Below, in pieces: positions 32,620 to 58,550 of a stretch of DNA of 64,000 nucleotides. A program made the translations under genes and the position numbers. The DNA lies in NCBI GenBank assembly GCA_958009085.1, contig OY253690.1:248001-312000 (forward strand), given 5' to 3'. The notes under the pieces are model-generated. The model saw nothing but the letters and a program-made list of their open reading frames with translations, did not search any database and was not told the origin of the DNA. How positions within the stretch are numbered: the first letter of the stretch is position 1; each line of letters opens with the position of its first letter. The DNA comes from Protoeuglena noctilucae (lineage: Eukaryota).

Positions 32620-35600
32620 ATGACCACGGCCGGTGCCGGCGCGCGCGCGCTGAACGCGCTTATGATTCCGGAAACGGACCTACAGGTGGGCGCCAAGCTC
32701 GCCGACGGAGGGCAGGGCGAGGTCTTCCGGGGCCGGTGGCGCAACCGGGACGTGGCCGTCAAGCGTTTGCATGCGGACATATCGGGCGTTGCGCGGGGGC
32801 AGCTGGGCGCGGTGCTGAACCGGGGCATGAAGGAGCTCGAGCGGATGGCGGCGGCGGCCACGAGCAGCACCCGCGTGTGCCCGTGAGTGGCCTGGGAAGC
32901 TGGCTGCAGGCATGCACAGCTGCGAGGGGCACTGCCTGCGAGCCCCTCCGAGGCGCAGCACCTGTCGCCCGGCCGCAGGCTTCTGGGTTTTACGGTCAAG
33001 GATGCCCAGCTGCACATCGTGATGCCGCTGTACGAGCGGGGGTCGCTGGTGCGGCGCATCGCGGAGCGGGGGGCGGGGCTGCGGCCGGAGGAGGTGGTGG
33101 AGGTGGCGGTGCAGCTGCTGGAGGGGCTGCAGGACCTGCACCACCGCGACATCGTGCACAGGGACATCAAGCCGGCCAATGTGCTGGTGGACGACCAGGG
33201 CAACCTGCTGCTCGCGGACTTTGGGCTGGCGACGGTGGTGGAGGGGTCGATGGGGGTGTCGGTGAGGCGGGGGTGCCACGCCTGCCGAGGGATGCATGCT
33301 TGCATGTCACGGGATCGTATCGAGTGCTGGCCTGGTCTTGCGTCGGCAAGCGCCCAGCATCGATTGTCAGTGGTGTGGCCGCAGTGGACGTCCCTGGACG
33401 GCACACGCATCGGCGCGGTGGGCACGGCTCAGTATATGGCCCCCGAGCAGTGGGACACGGAGCTGGGGCGCCCCACGCCAGCGTCGGACGCGTACGCAGC
33501 GGCGGCGACGCTGTGCCACGTGGCGTCGGGGCAGCCGCCCTACGGCAACAAGCAGATGCAGCAGATCATGACGGACGTCCTGGTGCGCAAGCGGCTCCCG
33601 ACGGTGCCAGACTCGGTGCCGGAGCCGCTGCGGTCGGCGCTGCGGGGTGCGTTGCAGTTCCACGCCGCGGATCGGACGAGCGTGGCGGAGATGCTGAAGG
33701 CGGCGAGAAAATCAAGGTGAGGGACAGAGACATGTGGCTTTCATGCGGGAAGACTGCCCACATGTGCGGCAGCTCATGGTTGCTGTCCGCCAGCCCCCTG
33801 CAGCCTGGCGAAATGCTGCGTGTGCAAAAAGGATGCGGATGTCCAGCTGACGGTGACGTGCAGTCAAGGGGCGCACCGGGTGTGCGGGGAGTGCCTGGCT
33901 GTCAAGGTGGGGACGCTGGCCGACAGCCGGGTGGCGTTCACGGCAGAGGGGCACCTGCAGTGTCGGAAGTGCACAGGGCAGGCGTGCGAGGGGGAGCTGT
34001 TTGCCCACGAGGTGGTGGCCAAGACACAGCACGACCCTGAGGCGGGCCGGCGGTTTCTGAAGGCCAGCCAGCAGCACGCGGCGGAGGCGGCAAAGGCCGT
34101 GAGTGCGAGGGAGGTGGAGGAGCTGCAGAAGCGCCTTCTGGAGGTCACGAAGCGGAGCGGGTCGGAAGCGGAGGCCGTGGACGCGCACCGGAGTCTCGTG
34201 GAGGAGCTGAACGTGAAGCGGTGCCCGTGGTGCTTGGCGGACTGCAGGGAGGACGCGCATCGGCACGTGGCCAGCTGCACGCGCAACCCGCGGAGGCTGA
34301 GCGTGTCTGAGACGGAGGCGAAATTTCGGCAACACGAGGCAGAAGAGGAGCGGATGCGCGTGCGATATGTGAGAGGCAACGTGCCGTGGGGGCAGCGGGC
34401 TGTGTGGGAGAAGGCGAATGGGCTGCCAGCAATTCGGGAGGCACGGATGCAATGGACGGACGTGGAGGCGGAGACGGGGATGGGGTGGCAGGGCGGGGCG
34501 TCGGGAAACAAGGTGAGGATGGGGGGAGTGAAAGTGGTGCACCAATGGTGGGTGCGTCGTGACAGATGGACAAGGCGGGTGACATTGGATTTGTAAGCGG
34601 ATGTGATTGCACCCTTGCGTGTGAAAAGCCAGTGAGGTACGAGCACATGTAGATGTGCCGGAGATGGAACCGATTGTGCTGTGGATGCAGGGTGGGCGGG
34701 ATAGGGACCCAGGGCCTGCCGTGGTGCAGCCCACTCCGGGCCAGAATGCCGCGGAGACGTCGGGGAAGCTCTTGCGGACGCTGGCTGGGCACTCAGATAT
34801 GGTGCACTCGATAGCCGTCTCCCCTGACGGGCGGTGGGTGGCGAGCGGGTCGGAGGACAACACGATCAAGGTGTGGAATGCAGCAACGGGGAAGCTCGTG
34901 CGCACGCTTTCTGGGCTTTCACAGGGTGTGGGATCGGTGGCCTTCTCCGTCGACGGCCGGTGGCTGGCGAGCGGATCGTGGGACGGTGCAGTCAAGCTGT
35001 GGGACACGGCGACGGGGAAGCTCATGCGGACGCTTTACGGGCATTCAGAGGGGGTGGCATCGGTGGCCTTCTCCCCCAGCGGTGTGTGGGTAGCGAGCGG
35101 GTCCGCGGACAGCACGGTCAAGCTGTGGAGCACAGCACCGGGGGAGATCGCGCGCACTCTGGCTGGGCATTCTGATACGGTGGCATCGGTGGCCTTATCA
35201 CCTGACAGCCGGTGGCTGGCGAGTGGGTCGTGGGATAGCACGGTCAAGCTGTGGGACGCAGCAACGGGGGAGCTTGTTCGCACGCTGTCTGGGCACTTAC
35301 AGTGGGTGCGCTCGGTGGCTTTCTCCCCCGACGGGCGGTGGCTGGCGAGTGGGGCATATGACAGGACGGTCAAGCTGTGGAACGCGGCGACAGGGGCGGT
35401 CGTGCGCACAATGGAAGGGCACTCAGACTGGGTGTACTCGGTGGCTTTCTCTCCTGACGGGCGGTGGGTGGCGAGCGGGTCGTTGGACGAGACAGTCAAG
35501 ATGTGGAACACGGCGACGGGGGAGCTGGTGCACACACTGTATGGGCACTCTGGCTCTGTGTGGTCGGTGGCTTTCTCCCCCGACGGGCGGTGGGTGGCGA

Positions 35601-35653
35601 GCGGGTCGGTGGATACAACGGTCAAGCTGTGGAACGTAGGAACGTTGCGCTAG
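32620..35653 (+). CDS. Protein kinase fused to a RING-like Cys/His domain, a second Cys/His cluster and 7 WD40 repeats; exons approx. 32620-32882, 32979-33261, 33385-33716, 33804-34512, 34691-35653
   Basis: GGQGEVF, VAVK, HRDIKPAN, DFG, GTAQYMAPE; CCVC..CSQGAHRVCGEC..CRKC; CPWCLADCREDAHRHVASC; seven 42-aa GH..WD repeats. Splice phases are consistent across all junctions. Confidence 0.85.
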
Positions 35654-36073: not shown

Positions 36074-36273
36074 NNNNNNNNNNNNNNNNNNNNNNNNNNN
36101 NNNNNNNNNNNNNNNNNNNNNNNNNNNNNNNNNNNNNNNNNNNNNNNNNNNNNNNNNNNNNNNNNNNNNNNNNNNNNNNNNNNNNNNNNNNNNNNNNNNN
36201 NNNNNNNNNNNNNNNNNNNNNNNNNNNNNNNNNNNNNNNNNNNNNNNNNNNNNNNNNNNNNNNNNNNNNNNNN
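36074..36273. other. Assembly gap (200 N)
   Basis: Run of N. Confidence 1.
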
Positions 36274-41759: not shown

Positions 41760-44700
41760 TCACATGCCGTCACCCCCACCCACCCCAAGCGCCCGCCAGG
41801 GCACCACCCCCCCCACCATCCCATGCAGCGCATGCGCCACGCCAGCCAGCACATCCGCCACCGCCACAGGCTGCCCCGCCACCCCCGCCCCTTCTCCCCA
41901 GAACCCCACTCCAATCGCCTCTCCACCCACCCCCACTGATCTGCCAAAGAACGCCACCCTGCCGTACCGCCCCCAGAGACTAGCAACGGTGGATTCCACG
42001 ATATCTGTGCCTATGAGCAGTTTGCGGGAGAGGTGGCGGTGGTGGGCGGCGGTGGGGGGGAGGTCGGCGGGGCGAGCGCGGGCGCGGCGGCAGGCGGAGC
42101 GGTGGGGGTCCTGGGGGGAGAGTGAGATGGGGTGGAGTGAGTTAGGATGAATATATAGGTATGTAATTGACTGGTGTGTCAATATAAGGCATGGTCACAG
42201 CATGGCATAGTTGATGGAGCGGTGGGGGCCCTGGGGGGGAGAGTGGGGTGGGATTGAATGAGTATATGATAAGATGAAATGATTGAAACATGAATGTAAG
42301 GCATGGTCACAGCATGGCGTGGCATGATGAGGGGTCAAACCGTGACTGCCCTCTCCCCATCCCTGCCACCCTTACCTCCCCCTTCCGTCGCCCCCCAACA
42401 CCACCACCACCCAACACCACCCTCACCTCCCCCTCCCTCACTCCCTGCAGCACGAACGCCCACTCGAACGTCCCCGCCCCCGGATGAACCACCACATCAC
42501 GCCCATCCCCCACTCGCAACCCGACACCCCACGCAGGCTCCACCGCTGCCCTCGCTCTGGCCAATGCCTCTTTGGCAGCTTGGGCGATGACGGGGATGGC
42601 GGCGGGGAGTATGCCGCGGATGGGGGCGGGTGGCGTGGGGGTGGCGTGGGTGGTGGGGCAGGAGAGGGTGAGGGGGGTGGAGCTGCGGGTGGGGTAAGGC
42701 TAGGTGTGTTGGTGAGAGGGTTTTCAACGTGCAGTTGCATGCAAGCAGAACTCTCTCCCTTTTTCATGCCATCTCACTTGCGCCCACGCACCCACCGCCC
42801 CCGTCACCGCTCCTAACAAACACACACCCCGCATCCCACCCCACTCTCCCACTCCCCACCCCACCATCCACACACACCCCACCCCCACCCAAACCCCATC
42901 TCACCTATCCCACCCCGCCACTTGTCCCAACGCAGTCACCCACCCCCTCGCCCCCGCCCCCATCCTCCCCCTCTCTCTCATCTCTTTGCAAGCATCCACC
43001 ACGATCGCCTCAGCCGCCACCCCCGCCACCATGCTGGCCGCGCCGAGGGAATCGGATCCCAGCCAGGATTTGAACATGCGACAGGCGGCGGCGAGGGCGG
43101 GGGAGTGGGCGACGGCGGTGGAGGTGGCGTGGGCGAGGAGGTCGGCTGGGGGGGGAGGGGAAGGGAGAGGTGAGAGTGAGTGATAGATGATAAGGGTGAG
43201 AGAGAGAGAGAGAGAGAGGTGAAGGGGAGGGGAGGTGGCGTGGGCGAGCAGGTCGGCTGGGGGGTAAGAGGGGAGGGGAGAGAGGATTTTAGTTGATGAT
43301 GAGATAATTGGATGGGAAGGTGAGAGTAGGAGAGACAGGTGCGATGAGGGGGTGAGTTTGAGAGAGAGAGGGGAAGCATGACAGCGCAACACAGGACATC
43401 ACTAGCTACGACCCACCCATCTCACCTGCCCCCTTCTCCCCTTCCTCTCCCGCCCCCGGCACCACCTCCACCTCCACCACACACCATACTCAAACAACCA
43501 CCAACACAGTCACCAACACAGTTACGATCACAATCATCACTCACCCGCACTCCGCTCCCCCTCTTCCCCCGCCCCCGGCACCACCTCCACTTCCACCACC
43601 CGCCCCTCCCACGCCACCCGCACGCAGTCGCGGCTCGCCACGGCCTCCCCCTTTGGGATCTCCGGGCCCAGCACAGACGCCACGTGAAGATGCAGGGCGG
43701 CCAGCATGTGGCTGCAAGCGATCGTAAGAAGGGGGGGATGAATGGGGGGTGTTAATGGTGTTATTGATGGGTTGATAATGGTGGCAGTATCAATGCCATC
43801 GACAGTTACTAGTATTGTTGGTATCGATGCCACGTGGAGGTGCAATGCGGCCAGCATGTGGCTGCGACGCGAGGGGAGGGGTTGCTAGTGTCAGTGCTGC
43901 TGTCACTTGACTGTCTATCATTGACGGTATCAATATGTAACTTTACAAACGCACACACATACTCGCACCCCTCACCTCCTCTCCTCCCCATCGCTGGGCA
44001 TCGCGGACCCCGCATCCACGCGCACCGTGACGGGCAGACCATGCACGGCGCGGGGGAGGGGAGTCGAAGCGTCGCGGTTTGCATTTGAATTTGAATGGGG
44101 GAGGAGGAGGGGGTGCTTGCGGGGGGGGTGGAGCTGCGGGGGGGAGTGAGGGGGTGGGAGTGAGGATGAGATGGCAGTGGGGGTGGGGATGGAAGTGAGG
44201 GTTGGAAAAGTGTCTGCCATCCCAACCCTTCCTGATTGCAACCAGCACATACCATTATCCATATCACCAATCGCATATCCCATCCCTAAGCATCTCACCT
44301 GCGTGGCCGCTCTTGTTGCTTTCCCCCCCTCCACCCGGTGCACCCGCATCGGCAGCTCTGGCGTGGCCGCCAGTCTGCCCATCACTGCCTGAAACCGCCC
44401 CACCTCCCGCACCCACCCCACGCCAGTGATGTCGTCAGAGTGAGGGGAGGGGGAGGAGGAGAGGGGGGGGAGGAGAGCTGGGGGGGAGGGAGAGAGGGGT
44501 GGGTGGGGGTGGGAGTGAGTGGGGGGGAGGTGAGGGGGAATGGGGTTGTGCTGCTGTTGCTGTTCACCATTACACATCTATAATGACCAAGTACCATTCA
44601 GTGGTACTTCATCCCACACCACTCAACCCCCCACTCACCCTCCACACCCCCCTCCTCCACCACTGCTCCCATCTTGCTCAATGCGAATGCCACCACATCT

Positions 44701-47783: not shown

Positions 47784-50700
47784 ATGGAGAAGAACGAGTC
47801 CTCCCGCGCCAGCCGCAACAACATCGAGGCCAGGTGAGGGATCTCCCGGCCGGACCCGGCGAGCCCCCCCAGGCGTTGGCGGGACAGCATGGCACGGCCG
47901 GCGAACCCCGCGGGCGCGTCCAATCCGGGCCCCGCGCCGCGGCCCGGGCCTCCCCCGCGGAGCACACCTTTTTTGAACTCCTCGCTTGCAGCCTGCATGG
48001 GGAGAGCGCCGCGCGGAGGAGGGCCATTCAGGCGAGCAAACAGCTAGGTTTTCACATGGGCGGATGTGGGCGGGCCGGGGCGCGCGCGCGGGGCCCGCGA
48101 GCCGTCCGGTATGACGTGACCGTGTCTCGGTTCGCATTTCGAACCCGTCGCTGTCGCCCTTCCCCCCGCGGACGCGGCGCTGCGCCTCCGGAGGGGCACC
48201 AGCACCGCCTCTCCTCATGGCCCGCCGCGGCGCCCCTGGGTCACCCGCGCGCCCCCGGCCTCGCCCGCGCAGGAGCTTTTATTCTTTGCGAGTGTCGGGG
48301 ACATCCAGCGATGTAAGAAGCTCGTCGAGAGCTGGCGCCTGAACGGTGGGTCGCGCGGGGGCTCGTTGCGCGCGCGGCGCGCGGCGAGGCGGGGGGCGCG
48401 ACGGGCTTTGGGATGCGACAGTGTTGTTTCATCGCTCCGCATTGCTCCGTAACCCCCGCAGTGGCCAACGCGGACTGTTGCGACTACGACTCGCGCACGC
48501 CCCTCCACCTCGCCGCCTCCGAGGTGACCCGCGGCCCCGGCGGCGCATTTATCGTTTCTTATTAGTATATGTAGCCCATCGCTGTGCCGTTTTTGCCGCC
48601 ATCGCGTCGTCTCGAGACGAACAGTTGCTAAATACCACGAAGTATCGACGCGTGATTGCTTCCTCTCCCCCCGCTTCCCCCCAGGGCGCGTGGGTGGTGA
48701 CGCAATGGCTTTTGGAGTCCGGCGCTGCCATCAACGCGTTAGACCGCTTCAACCGCACCCCTCTCGAGGATGCGGTGCGGGGGGAGTTTCTGGAAGTGGC
48801 GCGCCTGCTCATCGACCGTGGTGGGATGATCTTCCAGAGAGGCAAGCTCGTGTCCGTCGCCGACTCGGAGCTCAGCGGGTATTTGAACCTGCAGGCGCTG
48901 GGACTGACGCCTGGCTTCGAGGGGCTGGATTTGGATCCCGAATGGGAGATCGACCCGACCGAGTTAAAAGTGTTGGACAAGCTGGGGCAGGGGGAGTTCG
49001 GGACGGTGTTCAAGGCCAAGTGGAGGGGGTCGTACGTGGCGGTGAAGGCGAGTGGAGGGGGGGGTGGGGGGTGGGGGGGGTATGGGGGGGACTGGTTGGG
49101 GCAGAGCGGTGGTGTCGGTGGTGGGGCTGGAGGCGTTGTGTGTCAGCACTACCTCATGCACTGACTGCCTCTCCCCAGGTCCTCAACTCCAACGCCATTG
49201 CTGTTGGCGCCTTACTCCCACGCTCACTCACTAGCTCACTCACTCACTCACTCACTCCCTCACTCACTCACTCACCCAACACCCCCCCATCTCCCTCCCC
49301 CCCCAGGTCCTCAACTCTTCTGATTCCATCGCTCTCGGTGATTTCCGCACCGAGATCGGCATCCTGCGCCGCGTGCACCACCCCAACGCCGTGCAGATGC
49401 TGGGGGCATGTACCAAGAGCAAGCCCTACATGCTCGTGACCGAGTTCGTGCCGGGGGGGTCGCTCGCGGGGCTGTTCCGCATGGACAGGAGCCCCAGGTG
49501 AGTTATGCAGTTGACAGTTACTGATAGCGGTTGATATTGATGAGTCGATTGATGGTGGTGGTGTTAGTGGGGCTGTTTCGCATGGACAGGAGCCCCAGGT
49601 GGGTGTTACTATTATTACTACCATTATTATTACCATTACTGTCACTTTCATTCATCACCAATTATTCCCCCTCCCCTTCAGCTTGCGTCGCGTGTTGGAG
49701 ATGGCCCTGGACAGTGCACGTCGCATGTCGATTACAATTAGTACCACCATTACCATCACTAATCACTTATATCCCCCCTCCGCTCGCAGTCTCCGCCGTG
49801 TTCTGGAGATGGCCCTGGACATTGCGCGAGGCATGGCGTACCTCCACAGCACCGCCAAGGGCATCATCCACAGGGACCTGAAGCCGAGGTGAGAGTGGTT
49901 TTCAAATACAAAAATTATACTTAATTATTGCAGTATTAATCCATTTAAGCTCCATCTCAACTGTTGCACTGTTGCCCATGTATGCACATCGACCCCACTA
50001 CTACCGCTTCCCTGCAGCAACATCTCTTACAGTGGGTGTGGCTCCTACTGCAACTCCCCCGTGCAATCACAACCACCGACACACTTTCCCACTGGTTGTT
50101 GTCAACATCCCTTTCCCATCCATCGCAGCAACATCCTGGTGGGCGGCTCCTACTACAACTCCCCCATGGAGCTCGTCTTCCACACGGGCATCATCAAAAT
50201 CGGCGACTTCGGCCTCAGCAAGTCGCTGCCCGTGTTCACCAAGCAGGCGCCGGACCTGAAGGTGAGTGGAAGAAGGGAAGGGTTGATGTTGCCACTATCA
50301 ACTCAGCGCTAGCAACACACCGCCCACTAAGCCACCCTCCCACCACCCACTCTCTCACTACCACTGCCACTCGCATGCTATTTACCAGCTCTTGTTACTC
50401 ACTCACTTACCCTTCCCCTCTTAAATTCAAACAGGAGACGTACCACCTGACGGGGGGCACAGGGTCCTACCGGTACATGGCCCCCGAGGTGTTCCGCCAC
50501 GAGCCCTACAACAACAAGGTGGACGTGTATTCCTTTGGCATGATCCTATACCAGCTCATCGAGGGGGTGGTGCCCTACAACGGGACCAAGGTGAATGGCT
50601 GGGGGTGGTGGTGGCGGTGTGAATGCGACGGGGGGCGTCGTTGTGATAAATGCGACGCATCACAATCACAGAACAGCACCACGTAACAGCCACAGTGCAG

Positions 50701-51105
50701 CACGTAACACATACCCTACATCCCCCTCCTCCTCCCCTTCCCCCAGCCCATCCAGGCGGCCTTTGACGCCGCCCAGAGCCACCGGCGCCCCGAGTGGCGG
50801 CTGGTCTTCATGCTGCCAGAAGCGGCCGGTCGCGTCAGGCAGCTGGCGGAGCAGTGCTGGAGTGCGGACCCGCAGCACCGGCCGACGTTCGAGGGGGTGG
50901 CAGACGCGCTGGATGAGATGCTGGGGGGGCTGGTGAGGGTGAACCCAATAGTCACCACAGTCAACCATCGATTTACTTATACATACTCATATATACTATC
51001 TCTTTCTCCTCTCAGCCCCCCGAGGACCCCTCATGGCTCTACGCCCCCCGGCCCGAGTCCATGACCAAGAGGAGGGGAGCATGCGCGGGGTGCACCGCGA
51101 TGTGA
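47784..51105 (+). CDS. Ankyrin-repeat Raf-like protein kinase (plant ILK/VIK type), copy 2, C-terminus CTAM; start codon tentative
   Basis: LHGESAARRRAIQELLFFASVGD (homologous to copy 1), CCDYDSRTPLHLAASEG, WEIDP, GQGEFG, HRDLKP, DFG, TGSYRYMAPEVFRHEPYNNKVDVY. Confidence 0.9.
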
Positions 51106-52895
51106 AGATGGGAGATGCTGGTAGTTGATCGGAATAGCTATTGCTTACAGCAACAGCGATGCCGACCAAGGGGGGTGGGCGCGTGGGGTGGGCGACGATC
51201 GGTGACTCAGCAAAGGGGGGCGTGCGCGGGGTGCATCGAGATGTGAGATGCGATGGGAGACATCAGATTGACACTGGGGATGGCGTTCACGATGTCATCA
51301 ACCGTGTGGGGTAGGGTGGGCGACTGGTGGCCTAGCGGGGGGGGGGGGGGCGTGCGCGGGGTGCAGCGCGATGTGACATGGGATGGAAGAGACAGACATG
51401 GGGCTTGCTTGGTTTGACTATCATTGTCTGTAATACGAACCATGTGGGGTGGGGTGGGGTGGGGTGGGGATGGGGGTGACGATCGGTGACTGAGCAAAGG
51501 GGGGCGTGTGTGGGGTGCAGCGTGATGTGATGCGCGTGATGGGAGAGACAGAGAGGCAGGCACTGGCGGGGTTGGCGTTGACGAGAGTCGACCAGCCATG
51601 TGGGATGGGTGGGGTGGGGTGGGATGGGATGGGGTGGGGTGGGGCAACAACGAAACCACCCAGCCATGCAAGCGCTCCGTGTCGCGCCGGCAGCGAGCGG
51701 AGTCGACGCGCGGCCGTTGACATGACAGCGACACACAACACGCAGCTGCTCCGCGCTGCTTTGCGCTGCTTGCGTTGCTCACGCGACCTGCTTCACTTCA
51801 CGCGACCCTTTGTGTGCCGCCCGGCCCCCGCGTGCAAGGGGCTGCTTGCGTGCTTGCGCCAAACACCCCCGCACATACCCTGCCCGTGCTCGGTAAGGTG
51901 TCCGTTGGGCATAGAGCATGATAGTTAGTCCGTCAATTAGGACCGACGGCGCCAGGGTCAGAGTGACGAGCAGCCTGTGACTAGGGCGGTTGGGGCGATG
52001 GGGAGTGGCGCGAGATTACTCACTAGCTTACTTACTGGCTTAGTAAGTGTTACTTACCAGCCAACAACACCACCAAGCCGACCTGAGCCATCGCCGCAGC
52101 CACCCCTGCCAATGTCAATGCAGTGACCCCTACTGCCCGTCTTGCGGTTACTGTTACTGTTCCCTTTTCCTACTCCCCTTTCCCATCAACGCTCGTTGAA
52201 AGATCGCGTTCTCTGTTTCTATATCTTATGCTATGGGTACAATGTAGGGGTGGTGACTATGACACCTCAGTAACACATCTACAATGCCTGCTTAGATTAG
52301 TGACAAAGGAAGAAACTCTGAGAGTCGTGGGGTGCAAAAAGTGCAAAGCGCATTGGTGGGTGGGTATGGGGCTGGGCTGGGTGGAGCAAGGGGCAGTGCA
52401 GTGCAGTGTTGAGCAATACCATTCGATGCAATCAGCAAAGGGTGGCGTTGCGCAGTGGTTCGCTGGTGTTGTGTTGGTGATGCTGGGAACGAGGGCAGCT
52501 GCGGTGGCGGTGGCCGGCGGTGCGTTATGTAGAGAGGTGTAAGTTGGAGAGATGATGTGTTAGAAAGAAGATGAGATGAGATGAGAGACAAGAGACACTT
52601 GCAAGCAGTGTGACAGAAAATGTTTTGCTTTTCATTTTTCAAACAGCGAGGGGCGGAATGGCGTCACCCCATTTCCAGCCCCACCTACCCACCACCACCA
52701 CCACCACACTCCCCACCCCCCCACTCGCACACCCCACTACACTCTCATCAACACCCCGCATCACCCCCCACTCCCACCATACCCCCTCTCTCATCATCAC
52801 CCCTGCTTGGCCCTGGCCACCACCACCATCCCTACCACCACCACCGCTCCCCATCACCCATCCACATCCAATCACACCCATATCTCCCCCCATCT

Positions 52896-55800
52896 CTACC
52901 CCTGCTTGGCCCTGGCCACCGCCTCGGCCGCCGCCGCGGCAATCGACGCGTCGTTCGCGTTCGGCAAGTAGTAGTACTGCCCCTGCCCCGCCTTGGCGAT
53001 CTCCTGGGCGAACCCGGTCGATACGAACTTGTTCTCGGTGTCGATCACCAGCAGCTGCAGGCCGGCGGCATAGACCTTGCGGGACATGTCGAGGACCTGG
53101 GGGGGGGGGGTTGTGGGGGTGGTGAGTGATGTGGGGTGGGGTGAGTGGGGTGAGGGTGGGAGTGGGGGATGAGGGAGTGGAAGTAAGGGTGACTAGGGTG
53201 GGGGAGAGGCAGTGAAGGGTGTGTGAGGGTGAGGGTGGTGGAGGGGTGGTGAGGGGTTGGACACACCCACATTCAGCAAACACTTCCCCTATTTCAACCA
53301 CCATCACTCTCACACCTACTTACTCCATCACTCCCACATTCAGCCATAACTCCCATCTCACCTCCGCCCTCAGCTCCTCCGCCCCCATGTTCTTCTGTTC
53401 TTCTTGGGCAGCTCCCCCTCACACCCACACCCACTAACACACACACTAGCACACACCATGACAATTCAAATTCAAACATTCAAACACCCTTCTCACCTCC
53501 GCCCTCAGCTCCTCAGCCGCCATCTTCTCCTTCGGCGGCTCCCCCTCCGCTTCGTTGGCCTTGGACAGCGGCACGTTGGCACGACCATCCGTGATGAGCA
53601 CCACCATGGCGCGGCCCACGTCGCCCTGGGTGTCAGGAGAGATGGGGATAGTCGACATAGTATATATACACTATATGGCATTGTGTAGACTGCATGGCAT
53701 ATCGATGTGTATGGGATGGGTGGGACGGGGTGAGGACCACCGTGGCGCGGCCAATCTCCCATCCCATATCCCACCAACCACTCCCAGCCAGCAACAGCAC
53801 AAACAGTACCAGTCACAATCACACAACTCTTCCCCACTCTCACCTGCGCGAGTGCGTTCATGCCCGTCCTGGCCGCGAGCGACAGCCCGTGCGCCAGGGG
53901 CGACCCCCCCCCGCACGGCAGCGTGTCCATGCGCTTGCGGGCCATCGAGATGGACTTGGAGGGGGGGAGCAGCACCTCGGCCTTGTCGCCGTAAAAGGGG
54001 ATCAGGCACACCTGGGGGGATGGGGGGATGGGAGTTAGGTGTTGGAATAAGAGTGAGTATGATGGTGAGAGTGGTTGTCAGTACTATGGTAAGTGCATCG
54101 GCCTTGTCTCCATAAAAGGGGATCAGGCACACCTGAGATGGAGGGGGAGATGGGGAGAGGGGAGGGTGTGCAGAGCTGCTTTAGTGATGGTGGTGAGCGA
54201 CAGCGCTGCACTGTGCAGCCGCATCCACACTCCCATCAGTACCATCATCACTCTCCCTCTCTGTTTATCTCTACTCATATACACCCACTCACCTGGTCTC
54301 TGCTCTGGTACGAGTCGGCCAGTAGCCGCATCACGGCCCCCTTGGCCGACGCCATGCGATTGAGCGCCATGCTGCCCGACGCATCCACCACAAAGAGCAC
54401 CAGCGCGCCTGCCTTGCGGGCCATCTTCTTGGCGCGCATGTCGGGCTCCTCCACAAACACGTTGCGGGAGGCCTGGGGGGGATGGGGGGGAAGGGGTGGG
54501 GTTGGGGTTGGTGTGGGTGGGTTAAGAGGGGGTGAGGGGGTGGGTTGGGGGGGTGAGGATGGGGGAGGGGGAGAGGGAGAGGTGTGAGCGTCAGGAATGA
54601 TTGCGAGACGGCTGGGAGTATCGAATAAAGTGTGTGCACAGTTCAAACACCCAACAAATACCCACTCGCCTTTCCCTCCCGGACCGCCTGCTCCCGCCTG
54701 CTGCGCTGGTACGGGGCTGCCGCCCTGAGCGTGGCGTCCACGGCCAGCCGCCGCACTTTGCCCTTGGGGAGGATGGGCTTGATGTAACGACCCCGGTCCT
54801 CGCTGAAGATCAGGTTCTTGGCCCTGGGTTATCAGTGCAAGGGGTGTTGCAGTCTTGTGCTTCTGGGTCACGTTGCGCTTGACCAATGAGGGAGTCCATT
54901 GGGCAAGGCACATGGCTGCCAACCACACACACCATCCCTCACCTCCCGTGCTGCTGCTGCTGCCAGGCCTCCATCTAAGTGCCCACCGCACACACCCACA
55001 CACTCCATCAATACACACACCCCCACTCCCTCACCTCCCGCTCCTCCCCTGCGCCCTCTGCTGCTGCTGCGCCATCTGCATCACGCTCGGGTCCATCACC
55101 ACCCCCTCCGTGTCAAACATGAACTCCTGCGGGATCTGATCCGATTCGGGGTCGTCCTCGTCGTCCTCTTCCTCGTTCTCGTCTTCTTCCTCCTGCTCCT
55201 CCTCCTCCTGTGTGGTTATTGGGGAAATGGGGAGGTGTGTTAGTATAAGTAATATAAATCATCTACTGCAATAGTACTGGTGCTGTAAGTACTGGATATT
55301 TACAATAGCAGGTGCCGCCAGCTCACCTCCACCACCTACCCCCACCCATCTACATTCGTAATCCACTTATCTATATATCTTATACTATATATATTATATA
55401 TAACCGATCCCCATCTCATCCCCCCCTCACCTCCTGCTCCCCGCTGTCCTGGGGCGGCGGGGGCGGCGGCGGCGGCGGCTGCTCCTCGGGGGGAGGGGGG
55501 TCCCTCAGCACACTCCTCGGCAATATCACCAGCTCCACCGCGCGCTGCAGGTCCTCCGGCTCCACCCGGTTGCGGCCTTCCAGGGCTGCGCACGCCTTGG
55601 CGACCCGCACGGCAAAGACCTCGGCCCGATGCCCCTGCACGCCCCCGCGGCGCGCCTCCTCCACCAGGTACTTGACCTGATTGGGGGAGGGGGGAGAGGA
55701 AGGTTATAAACATGTATATATAGTATTATATGAGAGAGAGGGTGAGTGAGTGGGGGTGGCAGTGAGGGAGGCAATCGGGGTGGCAATGAGGGTGAGGGTG

Positions 55801-58550
55801 GCCAGAAGAGTGGGGGTGGCAGCGTGGCGACCGACTTCAGGTACTCTCATGCCCATGCACCCGTCACTACTTCACTACATGCACCCACATTCCCCCTCTC
55901 ATTCACCTGCTTTGGCCCGATGGCGACCGTCTTCAGGTACTCGCGTGCGAATATGATGTTGGTCTTGAGCTCCTCCGTCAGCTCCGTCACCTCGCGGAAC
56001 ACCGACTGTTGGGGATGGGGGGGGTAATTGAAGTGAGAGGGATGGGAGAGGTGAGAGGTGAGAGGGGGGGCTTAGAGGGGTGGGAGTGGGGGTGAGAGTG
56101 GGATGGGGGAGGGGGTGGGAGAGGTGGATGAGGCACTGTGACGCTCTCCCTCACTCTGCACCATCACCACTTCTACTCAACCACTCACCCACTCCCTCAT
56201 CTACTGCCACCATATGTCATATAATAATTTTCAGTCATTCCCCATATATACACCCCCATCACTTACCTGCGGGTCGTCCTGGAACCTCTGCGCCATCTCC
56301 ACCGCCGCCACCCGCTCCTCGAACGACGCCGGCACGTCGCAGCTCAGCGTCACGGCCACGCGGTCCAGCAGGTGCTCGCGGAGGGGGCCCTCTGCGATGG
56401 TTGAGCATAGGAGAATACGAGTATATATTTGAGTATACTCCGGGTTGTAGGTGGCAATGAGCACACAGTCACTATCACCCCAAACAAACACCAATTAACC
56501 ATTCCATCTCCCCTCCCCCCCCCCCCCCCTCATCTCTCACCCTCCGGGTTGTAGGTGGCGATGAGCATGCACTCACTACCACCCCACAGCACCATCCAAT
56601 TAAGTAATGAGTAATAACCGCTCAATTATAACCACTCAACCACCCATCAACACCCCCCCTCACCCTCCGGGTTGTACGTGGCTATCAAAAGTGGCCGGCA
56701 GGGGTGGGAGATGGAGATTCCCTCCCTCTCCACCACGTTCACGCCGTCCGCCAGGATCGACAGCAGCAGGTTGCAGATGCCGTCGTCCAGCAGGTTCACC
56801 TCGTCCACGTAGAGGATGCCCCGGTGGGCCTCGGCGAGGAGGCCGGGCTGGAAAACCGTCTTGCCCTCCTGTTGGGGGGAGGGGAGGGGGGTGTCAAATC
56901 GGTGTTTAGATTGTGGGAATGGTATGTGAATGGATGCAAGTGGGTGTGAGGCCGGGCTGGAAGACCGTCTTGCCGTCCTGTTGAGTGGGAGATGGGGGGG
57001 ATGGGTTGGGGTGAGTTAAAGTGGGGGTAAGAGTGGGAGTGTGTGTGACAGGCCTAGCTGGTACACCGGTACTCACATCCACACCCATCTGTACATCTGT
57101 TATACTCATCACCCCCATCACCCCATCATACATCTGTTATACTCATCACCCCCCCATCACACTCTCACCTTCATTGACGCCTCGATGTCCACCGTCCCCA
57201 CCAGGCGGTCCTCGGTCACCCCCAGCGGGATCTGCACATAGGGAGCCTCCTTGACGACACGCACGGGGTCGGCACCGTTCAGGCGCTCGCGGAGGCCGTC
57301 CTCCCACTCCCCGGGGGAGTCTGGGGTGGGGGAGGGGGGTGCTAGTGGTGTTGAGCGGGGGTGGGGGTGTGTGGGAAGGGGGTTGGGGGTTGTTAAGGGG
57401 TGTTGAGAGGGGGGGTGTGGGGGTGTGGGGGGGGGTCGAGGGGTGTTGTGGGTGAGGGGGGGAAGGTGGTGTGAGAGATGCGGCTGAGAGAGGTAGGGGT
57501 TGAGTGGGGAGGTGGGGAAGGGAGGTGGTGTGATAGAGTTGAATGATGTGACAGGAAATCTGAGAACAATGGAGGGGAGAGATGGGGAATGAGGGAGGAG
57601 CGACGGAGCACGGTTGGTGTAGCGGCTGCGTTGCATGTGCACGTGCTGGGTATTGAGATAGGAGCGGTCCTTGCTGTCCATCCCCCCACTCCACCCCTCT
57701 CCCATCCCACACCGTCCCGGGAGGGGAGGGACAGACCGTCGCGTGAACCCATGCATGGGGTGCGTGGAGATGGGGAGAGCGGCACCGCTCGCTAGTACCA
57801 CCGGTAAGACATGCAATGGCGAGTGCGCGGACACATCAGTGGGCACGCACACCCCGACCACCCCCATCGCTCACCACTCTCCCGACTCCCCACACACACC
57901 ACACCCACTCCCCCTCTGCCCCACACACCCACTCACCCGGGTCCGCATTGCAGATGGACCCCTCGACGACCTCAATGGGCGGCAGCAGGGCGTGGATGCC
58001 CCTGGCCATGATGGACTTGGCCGTGCCACGCCTCCCCGCAATCGCCACGCCGCCCAGGTTCGTGTCGCACGCGCCCAGGAGCAGCGCCTGCGGGGAGACA
58101 CGATGAGCGCGCTGGGAAGAAAGAATGGAAACAAAGCGATGTGATGGTGACGACGCCCGGGCCGCGGCGCGCCTGCTTGATGAGCTGCTGGCCCACGACC
58201 GCGGCGAGCGGAAAGGTGCGGAGGAGCTTCAGCTGCTTGCTGTCGCTGCTCAAGAGGACGGAGGAAGACTGTTCCATCGCCTCGGCGGCCTTGGCTGCGG
58301 GCATGGCGAGGCGCTCGGCGTGTCGCACCACGGATAGAGTGCGCGCGTCCGCGCCCGCCCCGCGATCTCGTGGCCGAGGGCTGGCGCGGGGACGGTCACC
58401 TCGGTCCTCCGCCGAAGCCGCAACTGCCGCGATGGCGAGCGACCTCCCCGGCTTCCCCCATGGCGTCGCGCGCGCGGCCGGGCGCTGACCCCCGGGCCCA
58501 GCTGCCAGGCGCGTCGCGCCGGCCCACCAGGCGCAGCAGGCGCCCTTCAT
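52896..58550 (-). CDS. CHLD: Magnesium chelatase subunit D, nuclear-encoded plastid protein, multi-exon; start tentative
   Basis: [60 protein letters not shown], a polyproline/acidic linker, and the vWA motifs [14 protein letters not shown] and LITDGRANV. Confidence 0.97.

Follow-up and report, generated by a model that had tools for sequence, protein, structure and literature searches.

The 64-kb window analysed here (64,000 nt of the Protoeuglena noctilucae contig OY253690.1; positions are counted from its first letter) is eukaryotic DNA with a G+C content of 65% across its length, and carries on its plus strand a gene that combines ankyrin repeats with a TKL-type kinase. One intron of this gene, 49498-49789, with a length of 292 nt, contains decayed copies of the exon borders on either side of it, which I call echoes: a donor echo, repeating the end of the upstream exon with its splice donor, and an acceptor echo, repeating the splice acceptor with the start of the downstream exon. 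The nearest named relative of the exon preceding this intron is a protein from Pedinophyceae sp. YPF-701 (93% identity); together with matches of the neighbouring ChlD gene to proteins of green algae, this places the organism among marine green algae, near the pedinophytes. A comparison of the window with itself reveals many further short direct repeats spaced about 80-150 nt apart. The intron and its flanking exons, all on the plus strand, are built up as follows, with scores taken from a position weight matrix (PWM):

49307..49497, plus strand: kinase exon upstream of the intron, ending in ...AGC CCC AG (joined model free of stops; RNA contig)
49498..49503, plus strand: real outer donor GTGAGT (PWM score 13.3; an RNA contig piece ends here)
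49504..49565, plus strand: filler x on the donor side, G/T-rich and C-poor (8% C; composition)
49566..49604, plus strand: donor echo, the last approximately 30 nt of the exon and the donor GTGGGT, with a 33-nt core at 49569-49601 (32/33 identity)
49599..49681, plus strand: inner span GT..AG with a length of 83 nt, interpreted as a possible relic of an ancestral short intron (sequence; offset arithmetic)
49663..49730, plus strand: acceptor echo, consisting of a pyrimidine tract, CAG and the first approximately 49 nt of the downstream exon (alignment score 55)
49731..49769, plus strand: filler y on the acceptor side, G-poor (3% G), related to the sequence preceding the echo acceptor
49770..49789, plus strand: region of the real outer acceptor, with CAG as its last bases (the model using it is collinear with three orthologous proteins)
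49790..49888, plus strand: kinase exon downstream of the intron, LRRVLEMALDIARGMAYLH...HRDLKP (joined model; orthologue comparison)

The core of the donor echo differs from 49468-49500 at a single base, which changes TTC to TTT, and its donor reads GTGGGT where the real donor reads GTGAGT. The acceptor echo consists of a CAG at 49679-49681 and exon-like sequence at 49682-49730, which match the CAG at 49787-49789 and the exon at 49790-49838. The local-alignment scores of the two echoes (62 for the donor echo) are reached by none of 300 shuffles of the intron, nor by any of 200 shuffles in a second run. Both echoes are direct repeats, lying 101 nt (donor) and 108 nt (acceptor) from the real junctions. 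The coordinates of both echoes and of the inner span, as given by an earlier sequence-only reading of this DNA, are all correct. Tandem Repeats Finder calls neither of the two repeats an array.

False duplications are common in assemblies, and the assembly of this window has a gap of 200 N elsewhere (36074-36273), so that one could think of an artefact, or of two haplotypes stitched together. This is next to impossible here. Two DNA contigs each cover 49289-50515 without a single difference or gap with respect to the window: X4 record 4, which is 1270 nt long and derives from a culture, and X6 record 11, from the metagenome of another study. This evidence for the cis arrangement consists of assembled contigs, not raw reads; as no exact match between echo and exon reaches the length of the 31-base words that underlie the contigs, the latter could not be collapsed or misjoined at this point. 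Because both versions are present on single DNA contigs from two studies, the arrangement is neither an assembly nor a haplotype artefact, and the separate haplotypes that the earlier reading had named as the finding that would speak against it are contradicted. A divergent allele, which that reading had proposed as a source of the echo, is not supported either: the window and the two DNA runs show no differences over 49289-50515, and the two echoes differ sharply in their silent divergence (1/9 codons for the donor echo, 7/16 for the acceptor echo).

Splice sites in use

In the neighbouring gene for ChlD, all eight introns listed among the RNA joints are joined at the outer sites, six of them being echo-bearing (one contig each, from two metatranscriptomes). 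For the kinase intron, an RNA contig of 523 nt (X9, record 19) matches 49305-49494 and then continues elsewhere; it thus leaves the genome at the outer donor, and not at 49598, which supports use of the former. That the outer acceptor is used as well I infer from protein comparisons: the kinase model with outer sites is collinear with the orthologues P0123, P0124 and P0126 (338 of 431 aligned columns are identical to P0123), and splicing at the echo acceptor would bring in 36 residues that none of the three has. Of the sampled words, a share of 0.36 is present in the RNA runs, a value closer to that of the outer-site model (0.39) than to that of the echo-acceptor model (0.43), but within the sampling noise of both.

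The kinase gene as a whole was modelled as eight exons, all on the plus strand, with a joined translation free of stops:

48462-48523, 48685-49047, 49307-49497, 49790-49888, plus strand: exons 1 to 4
50129-50261, 50435-50590, 50747-50932, 51016-51110, plus strand: exons 5 to 8

Together with this gene, I built and checked full models of two others, ChlD and HisD (histidinol dehydrogenase), which contain 26 introns between the three of them. The ChlD model, on the minus strand, has 14 exons, was mapped with a 100% identical protein (P0002) and agrees with eight RNA joints; one of its exons matches ChlD proteins of green algae, and is 100% identical to a protein of 751 residues, the source of which (2459 nt) is taken as a transcript. 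The HisD model, also on the minus strand, has seven exons in frame and was confirmed by Pfam. A NOL6-like gene was modelled in part, its frames resting on the length of the open reading frames (ORFs), on the G+C content of third codon positions and on splice phase only; Pfam returned no family for the two NOL6-like exons that carry echoes, and the exon upstream gave a sub-threshold match to Nrap_D3 (E 0.0016). For the 30.6-kb gene, the frame close to the donor was taken from the ORF.

Some further details of splicing in these genes stand apart from the echoes. At four of the 26 modelled donors GC is present instead of GT (49048, 54669, 58172 and 61652); the one at 49048 reads AAG/GCGAGT, and for the one at 54669, in intron 54473-54669 (CT..GC as seen along the plus strand), an RNA joint provides support. 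The match of another RNA contig (X9, record 18) ends at 49044, while the GC donor of the model follows 49047 and a GTGAAG is found at 49042, so a second donor, 6 nt upstream of the GC donor, is possibly used; the protein would then lack the conserved Lys of the kinase VAVK motif. The first ChlD intron, 58295-58399, measures 105 nt and is in frame and stop-free on read-through; if retained, it would lengthen the transit-peptide region by 35 residues.

Echoes in neighbouring introns and at stop codons

In order to count echoes throughout, every intron was scanned under one fixed scoring scheme for copies of both flanking exon edges, with a cut-off score of at least 28, which was reached by none of 200 shuffles. 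The survey comprises one 64-kb window and 22 echoes. At least one echo is present in 14 of the 26 introns of the kinase, ChlD and HisD genes, and the other 12 have none. A donor and an acceptor echo occur together in three of these introns, among them 49498-49789, and also in the NOL6-like intron 43146-43544. The offsets of the echoes range from 72 to 151 nt, and are in frame for 11 of the 22, which is not clearly above one third. Introns with an echo have a median length of 276 nt, as compared to 174 nt for those without (lengths sorted by hand).

With whole exons as queries, in both orientations, 17 matches were found in the 26 introns, and all of these are direct, without one inverted copy. 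The source of every match lies 0-20 nt from the adjacent junction, none stemming from an exon interior or from a far exon. Upstream-exon copies are restricted to the 5' part of an intron, those of the downstream exon to its 3' part; crossed copies, that is, the start of the downstream exon at the 5' end of an intron or the end of the upstream exon at its 3' end, are absent from all 26 introns. An echo takes 11-54 nt of exon, adjoining one junction only, and in many echoes the junction itself is missing, or insertions or deletions are present. A duplicated, mutually exclusive exon does not describe such copies, as they do not comprise a whole exon with acceptor and donor, and the donor echo of 49498-49789 would form a frame-shifting unit of 31 nt.

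Both introns next to 49498-49789 also have an acceptor echo, and similar copies are present beyond the coding end of the kinase gene:

49173..49189, plus strand: acceptor echo within intron 49048-49306, just upstream, repeating 49301-49317 at an offset of 128 (17/17 identical; 0 of 200 shuffles)
50014..50063, plus strand: acceptor echo within intron 49889-50128, the next one downstream, repeating 50125-50168 with insertions or deletions (score 44; 0 of 300 shuffles)
51194..51530, plus strand: three more copies of the kinase coding end and stop codon in the 3' untranslated region (UTR), at about 51214, 51345 and 51499 (local repeats; by eye)

The last of these entries is part of a repetitive stretch (51073-51530), in which copies of the last approximately 30 coding bases and the stop codon follow each other at distances of about 130-155 nt. 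Each of the 3' UTR copies keeps a Cys..Cys-x-x-Met-stop, and the orthologues also end with Cys-x-x-Met, which I take to be a prenylation-type box. In the 3' UTR of ChlD, 52799-52821 and 52898-52920 are identical over 23 of 23 bases at a distance of 99 nt; this repeat comprises the last approximately 20 coding bases and the stop region, with TAG as the stop codon of the real copy and TGA as that of the repeat. The occurrence of such coding-end copies in 3' UTRs indicates that the process is not tied to splicing.

Two successive donor echoes (56438-56482 and 56536-56559) are present in ChlD intron 56392-56663. They are 89% alike over 45 nt and resemble each other more closely than either resembles the exon, which suggests that the second was copied from the first. 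By eye, they show one third-codon difference in the 23 exon-derived nt, and about five differences in the adjoining 20 nt.

Could the echoes be working splicing elements, serving as decoys or enhancers in the definition of the outer sites, or taking part in a nested splicing reaction that removes the 83-nt span first? Their splice sites are well kept, since GT or AG is retained at 15 of the 16 echo sites examined, including both in 49498-49789, and the inner span is a well-formed GT..AG unit of the length of a normal short intron. In a small PWM trained on the 26 real sites, and hence favouring these, the echo site scores lower than its own real site in ten cases, equal in two and higher in four; in 49498-49789, the echo donor reaches 8.6 against 13.3 for the real donor, and the echo acceptor 13.9 against 12.8. 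However, many echoes lack the junction or have indels, the 12 introns without an echo do without such elements, and the copies at stop codons are found where splicing is not involved. Intron 49498-49789 is unremarkable in its folding energy (z = -0.72, equalled or surpassed by 47 of 200 shuffles), and a stem of filler x with the inner span, enclosing the donor echo, proved to be without statistical weight. I therefore regard a role in splicing as very unlikely. Descriptions of nested or recursive splicing and of stwintrons, in the portions of these papers at hand (PMC8469720, PMC12403724), share with this intron a complete GT..AG unit within a larger one, but the inner unit here interrupts no splice signal of the outer intron and starts 101 nt from the outer donor. 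At the donor echo no ratchet point with juxtaposed AG/GT is present, as the AG at 49566-49567 is followed by TG.

A repeat of another kind is found at 34761-35644, where about seven copies with a period of 126 nt and 75% identity form a tandem array; from my own reading of the consensus, these are putative WD40-type coding repeats.

Silent and non-silent differences

The sequence-only reading had found all seven differences in the stretch that it quoted from the acceptor echo and the exon to be silent, and had inferred that the echo was under protein-level selection. The first part is true, as the first 33 exon bases contain seven differences, all silent (one in the split Ser codon, two in CTC>TTG, and CGC>CGT, CGT>CGC, GTT>GTG and CTG>TTG), but the alignment runs on to 49730 and includes three non-silent changes there. 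In the next five codons two silent changes are accompanied by three non-silent ones (I>S, G>R and A>S), one of which hits a Gly that is kept in all four relatives retrieved (P0123-P0126). In full codons, the acceptor echo has seven silent against three non-silent changes, and for this echo alone 7/10 corresponds to a P of about 0.05 (binomial, before allowing for the number of echoes).

A large silent share does not need selection on the echo, since the real exon changes only silently. If the echo is free to decay while the exon changes in this way, about 40-45% of the changed codons should be silent; for random changes in these codons the silent share is about 0.27. The pooled counts of silent among all changed codons, from which the 22nd echo was left out as it has no codon changes, are as follows:

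All 21 echoes with changes: 32/57 silent (P = 0.01 at a null of 0.40; 0.06 at 0.45)
Without the two echoes of 49498-49789: 24/46 silent (P = 0.06 at a null of 0.40; 0.20 at 0.45)
Kinase, ChlD and HisD without 49498-49789: 12/31 silent, or 39% (P = 0.62 at a null of 0.40)

This pooled count, a check that the earlier reading had proposed, does not establish protein-level selection on the echo when run within the window. The excess stems from the acceptor echo of 49498-49789 and from three NOL6-like echoes (11:3), whereas in the firmly annotated genes the share is what a neutral echo should show, which supports an origin of the echoes as non-coding by-products of duplication, as discussed below.

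Nevertheless, some echoes may have been, or may still be, under protein-level constraint, and two routes to this can be imagined. After an in-frame duplication on the acceptor side, the upstream copy could have been the active acceptor, both copies being translated as part of a 36-residue insertion, until splicing moved outward and the copy became intronic. Alternatively, a very large population could purge variants in the echo, as gene conversion carries these into the exon. In favour of constraint are the wholly silent start of the acceptor echo, the in-frame, stop-free path of 108 nt from the echo acceptor to the real one, the five in-frame and stop-free echoes with 14 silent to 5 non-silent changes, as compared to 18:20 for the rest, and the pooled share, which exceeds the null of 0.40 and is accompanied by heterogeneity among the echoes (P = 0.014). 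However, without 49498-49789 the excess is no longer significant, and it is absent from the three firm genes. The non-silent changes in the very next codons, including the one at the conserved Gly, do not fit either, nor does the echo at 50014-50063, which is in frame and stop-free and yet has no silent and two non-silent changes, besides its indels. In the NOL6-like gene, a silent-rich donor echo lies out of frame and contains many stops, in-frame offsets are not in clear excess, and symmetric gene conversion should lower the silent share rather than raise it. Taken together, I consider constraint on the echoes improbable, and a small surplus of silent differences stays unexplained.

Origin of the echoes and known systems

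The sequence between an echo and its real junction, here called filler, could reveal how the copies arose. On the donor side the fillers are C-poor and G/T-rich (0-12% C in seven cases), and on the acceptor side G-poor (0-11% G in 11 cases). The modelled introns between 41 and 64 kb are polar in general, with a G/T-rich and nearly C-free 5' part and a C/A/T-rich and nearly G-free 3' part, and the ends of intron 49048-49306 are complementary, 49057-49086 pairing with 49275-49304 (30 nt, 80%); such pairing of intron ends could help to bring the splice sites together. All 18 fillers compared against each other share no mobile-element sequence, giving only matches of a CTCA microsatellite, and a search for a source of filler x elsewhere in the window gave only GGT-type microsatellite matches. 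Fillers as remodelled exon, purged of C on the donor side and of G on the acceptor side, were rejected as well, with Z from -2.0 to +1.8 for 17 echoes (+1.7 on the donor side and +1.3 on the acceptor side of 49498-49789).

In 8 of 17 cases the best partner of a filler is the neighbour of its own echo, as a tandem duplication of the whole unit predicts, with about two such cases expected by chance. Filler y is among these, its own pair scoring 25 and ranking first of 11, with a likeness to the start of the inner span at P = 0.002. In all 15 pairs profiled the likeness is limited to 30-60 nt with sharp edges, which I attribute, tentatively, to a fast turnover of low-complexity intron sequence; Tandem Repeats Finder shows such sequence throughout the introns.

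These edges would also be expected if the echoes were patches of 30-60 nt, copied from a nearby junction into a break in the intron, either by templated repair or by gene conversion over short tracts; what lies between the copies would then be old intron. The donor patch of 49498-49789, which is 97% identical in spite of unrelated flanks, and the nine of 17 cases in which the own flank is not the best match, fit this alternative. It conflicts with the excess of own-flank matches, and with the absence of inverted, exon-interior and far-exon copies, which repair from a nearby template should also yield. In addition, introns with echoes exceed the others in length by about 100 nt instead of 30-50 nt. 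For these reasons patch copying as the general origin seems unlikely.

The explanation that I favour as the probable one is that an ancestral intron of about 83 nt was widened by two independent local duplications, each spanning a junction, so that the inner pair of sites is a pair of unused pseudo-sites. The ancestral short intron was one of several options named in the sequence-only reading, and it is supported by the lengths: the 292 nt of the intron minus the offsets of 101 and 108 nt leave 83 nt, which equals both the inner span and the shortest intron of the gene (50933-51015). Both the mechanism of duplication and the order of events I infer from the present sequence. From an intron of this size, one duplication of about 100 nt across the donor junction and a separate one across the acceptor junction would each have left two copies of an exon edge with its splice site. 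The reading frame would then be restored only by the outermost donor and the outermost acceptor, which would make the outer pair the working pair, while the inner pair (49569-49601 and 49679-49730) would persist as decaying pseudo-sites within the intron. The same process may act throughout the genome, short duplications starting in low-complexity tracts beside splice sites and taking 11-54 nt of exon with them; the extra copies would survive only where a donor, an acceptor or a stop codon makes them non-coding.

Several observations weigh against this explanation. The outer acceptor of 49498-49789 is unseen in RNA, as the table of RNA joints did not list this intron. In spite of its near-identical donor patch, filler x is unlike the sequence after the echo donor (P = 0.16; rank 5 of 6), where a plain recent tandem duplication should show a likeness of the flanks, so that a patch-wise copy or later gene conversion may be involved. 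The exon share is small for units of about 110 nt, unlike what random breakpoints would give, and all 12 non-microsatellite local repeats found by BLAST in the three modelled genes involve an exon edge, none being purely intronic. Finally, the pooled silent share of all 21 echoes with changes exceeds the null of 0.40, with heterogeneity among the echoes, and the 7:3 of the acceptor echo and the 11:3 of the NOL6-like echoes look too silent for neutral decay at that age.

In a more far-reaching variant, introns in this genome may grow by swallowing duplicated exon edges, and some copies would have been translated for long and have diverged silently, because after an in-frame duplication of a junction the inner site may have stayed in use before the shift to the outer one, or would have been kept clean by exchange with the exon in a very large population. 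I think this rather unlikely, but if true, the genome would hold, by extrapolation, very many intact splice sites that are ignored, together with a dated record of splice-site shifts.

The closest described case is a minisatellite in intron 7 of the human F7 gene, with units of 37 bp, the first of which spans the boundary of exon 7 and intron 7 (PMC1557585). As portrayed in the available part of that paper, direct repeats extend there from the exon into the intron, and the authentic donor is followed by near-identical pseudo-donors, just as here. In contrast, the units in the present window measure about 100 nt, are mostly present once and have diverged in their intronic parts, and acceptors and stop codons are affected besides donors, in about half of the examined introns instead of at one locus. 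Measured against the F7 units, which are alike over their whole length, the acceptor flank of 49498-49789 ranks 1 of 11 and the donor flank 5 of 6.

Internal tandem gene duplications that are made harmless by splicing are also the basis of a model of intron gain (PMC3443670). In the section of that paper available to me, a short tandem duplication within a gene is tolerated, as splicing removes the extra copy and restores the coding sequence exactly, which resembles the proposal made here. However, an existing intron is lengthened here and no new one is formed, and the intron predicted by that model, which would arise from an AGGT-containing exon segment and carry downstream-exon sequence at its start and upstream-exon sequence at its end, is not encountered among the 26 introns. 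Introners and other transposon-derived introns likewise add spliced-out sequence flanked by a direct duplication, according to the excerpts of the reports at hand (PMC9860276, PMC12130899, 10.1101/2020.10.14.339549). They differ from the echoes in that the fillers have no family-wide similarity beyond the CTCA microsatellite, inverted exon copies do not occur, and the duplicated part is 30-60 nt of the intron's own junction, not a short target-site duplication. In the limited literature searched, I did not find a description of intronic exon-edge echoes in algae.

Single pseudo-splice sites that result from border-spanning repeats are thus known, but copies of their own borders in about half of the examined introns are a different matter, and the new element is this scale, which includes both intron ends as well as stop codons. 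For annotation the echoes are a warning, as gene finders and spliced aligners can pick echo sites, which in the kinase gene would mean 36 extra residues. If the proposed explanation is right, a major way in which introns gain length, about 100 nt at a time, would be revealed, and the genome would offer a large natural set of intact yet unused donors and acceptors, from which could be learned how the outer sites are chosen.

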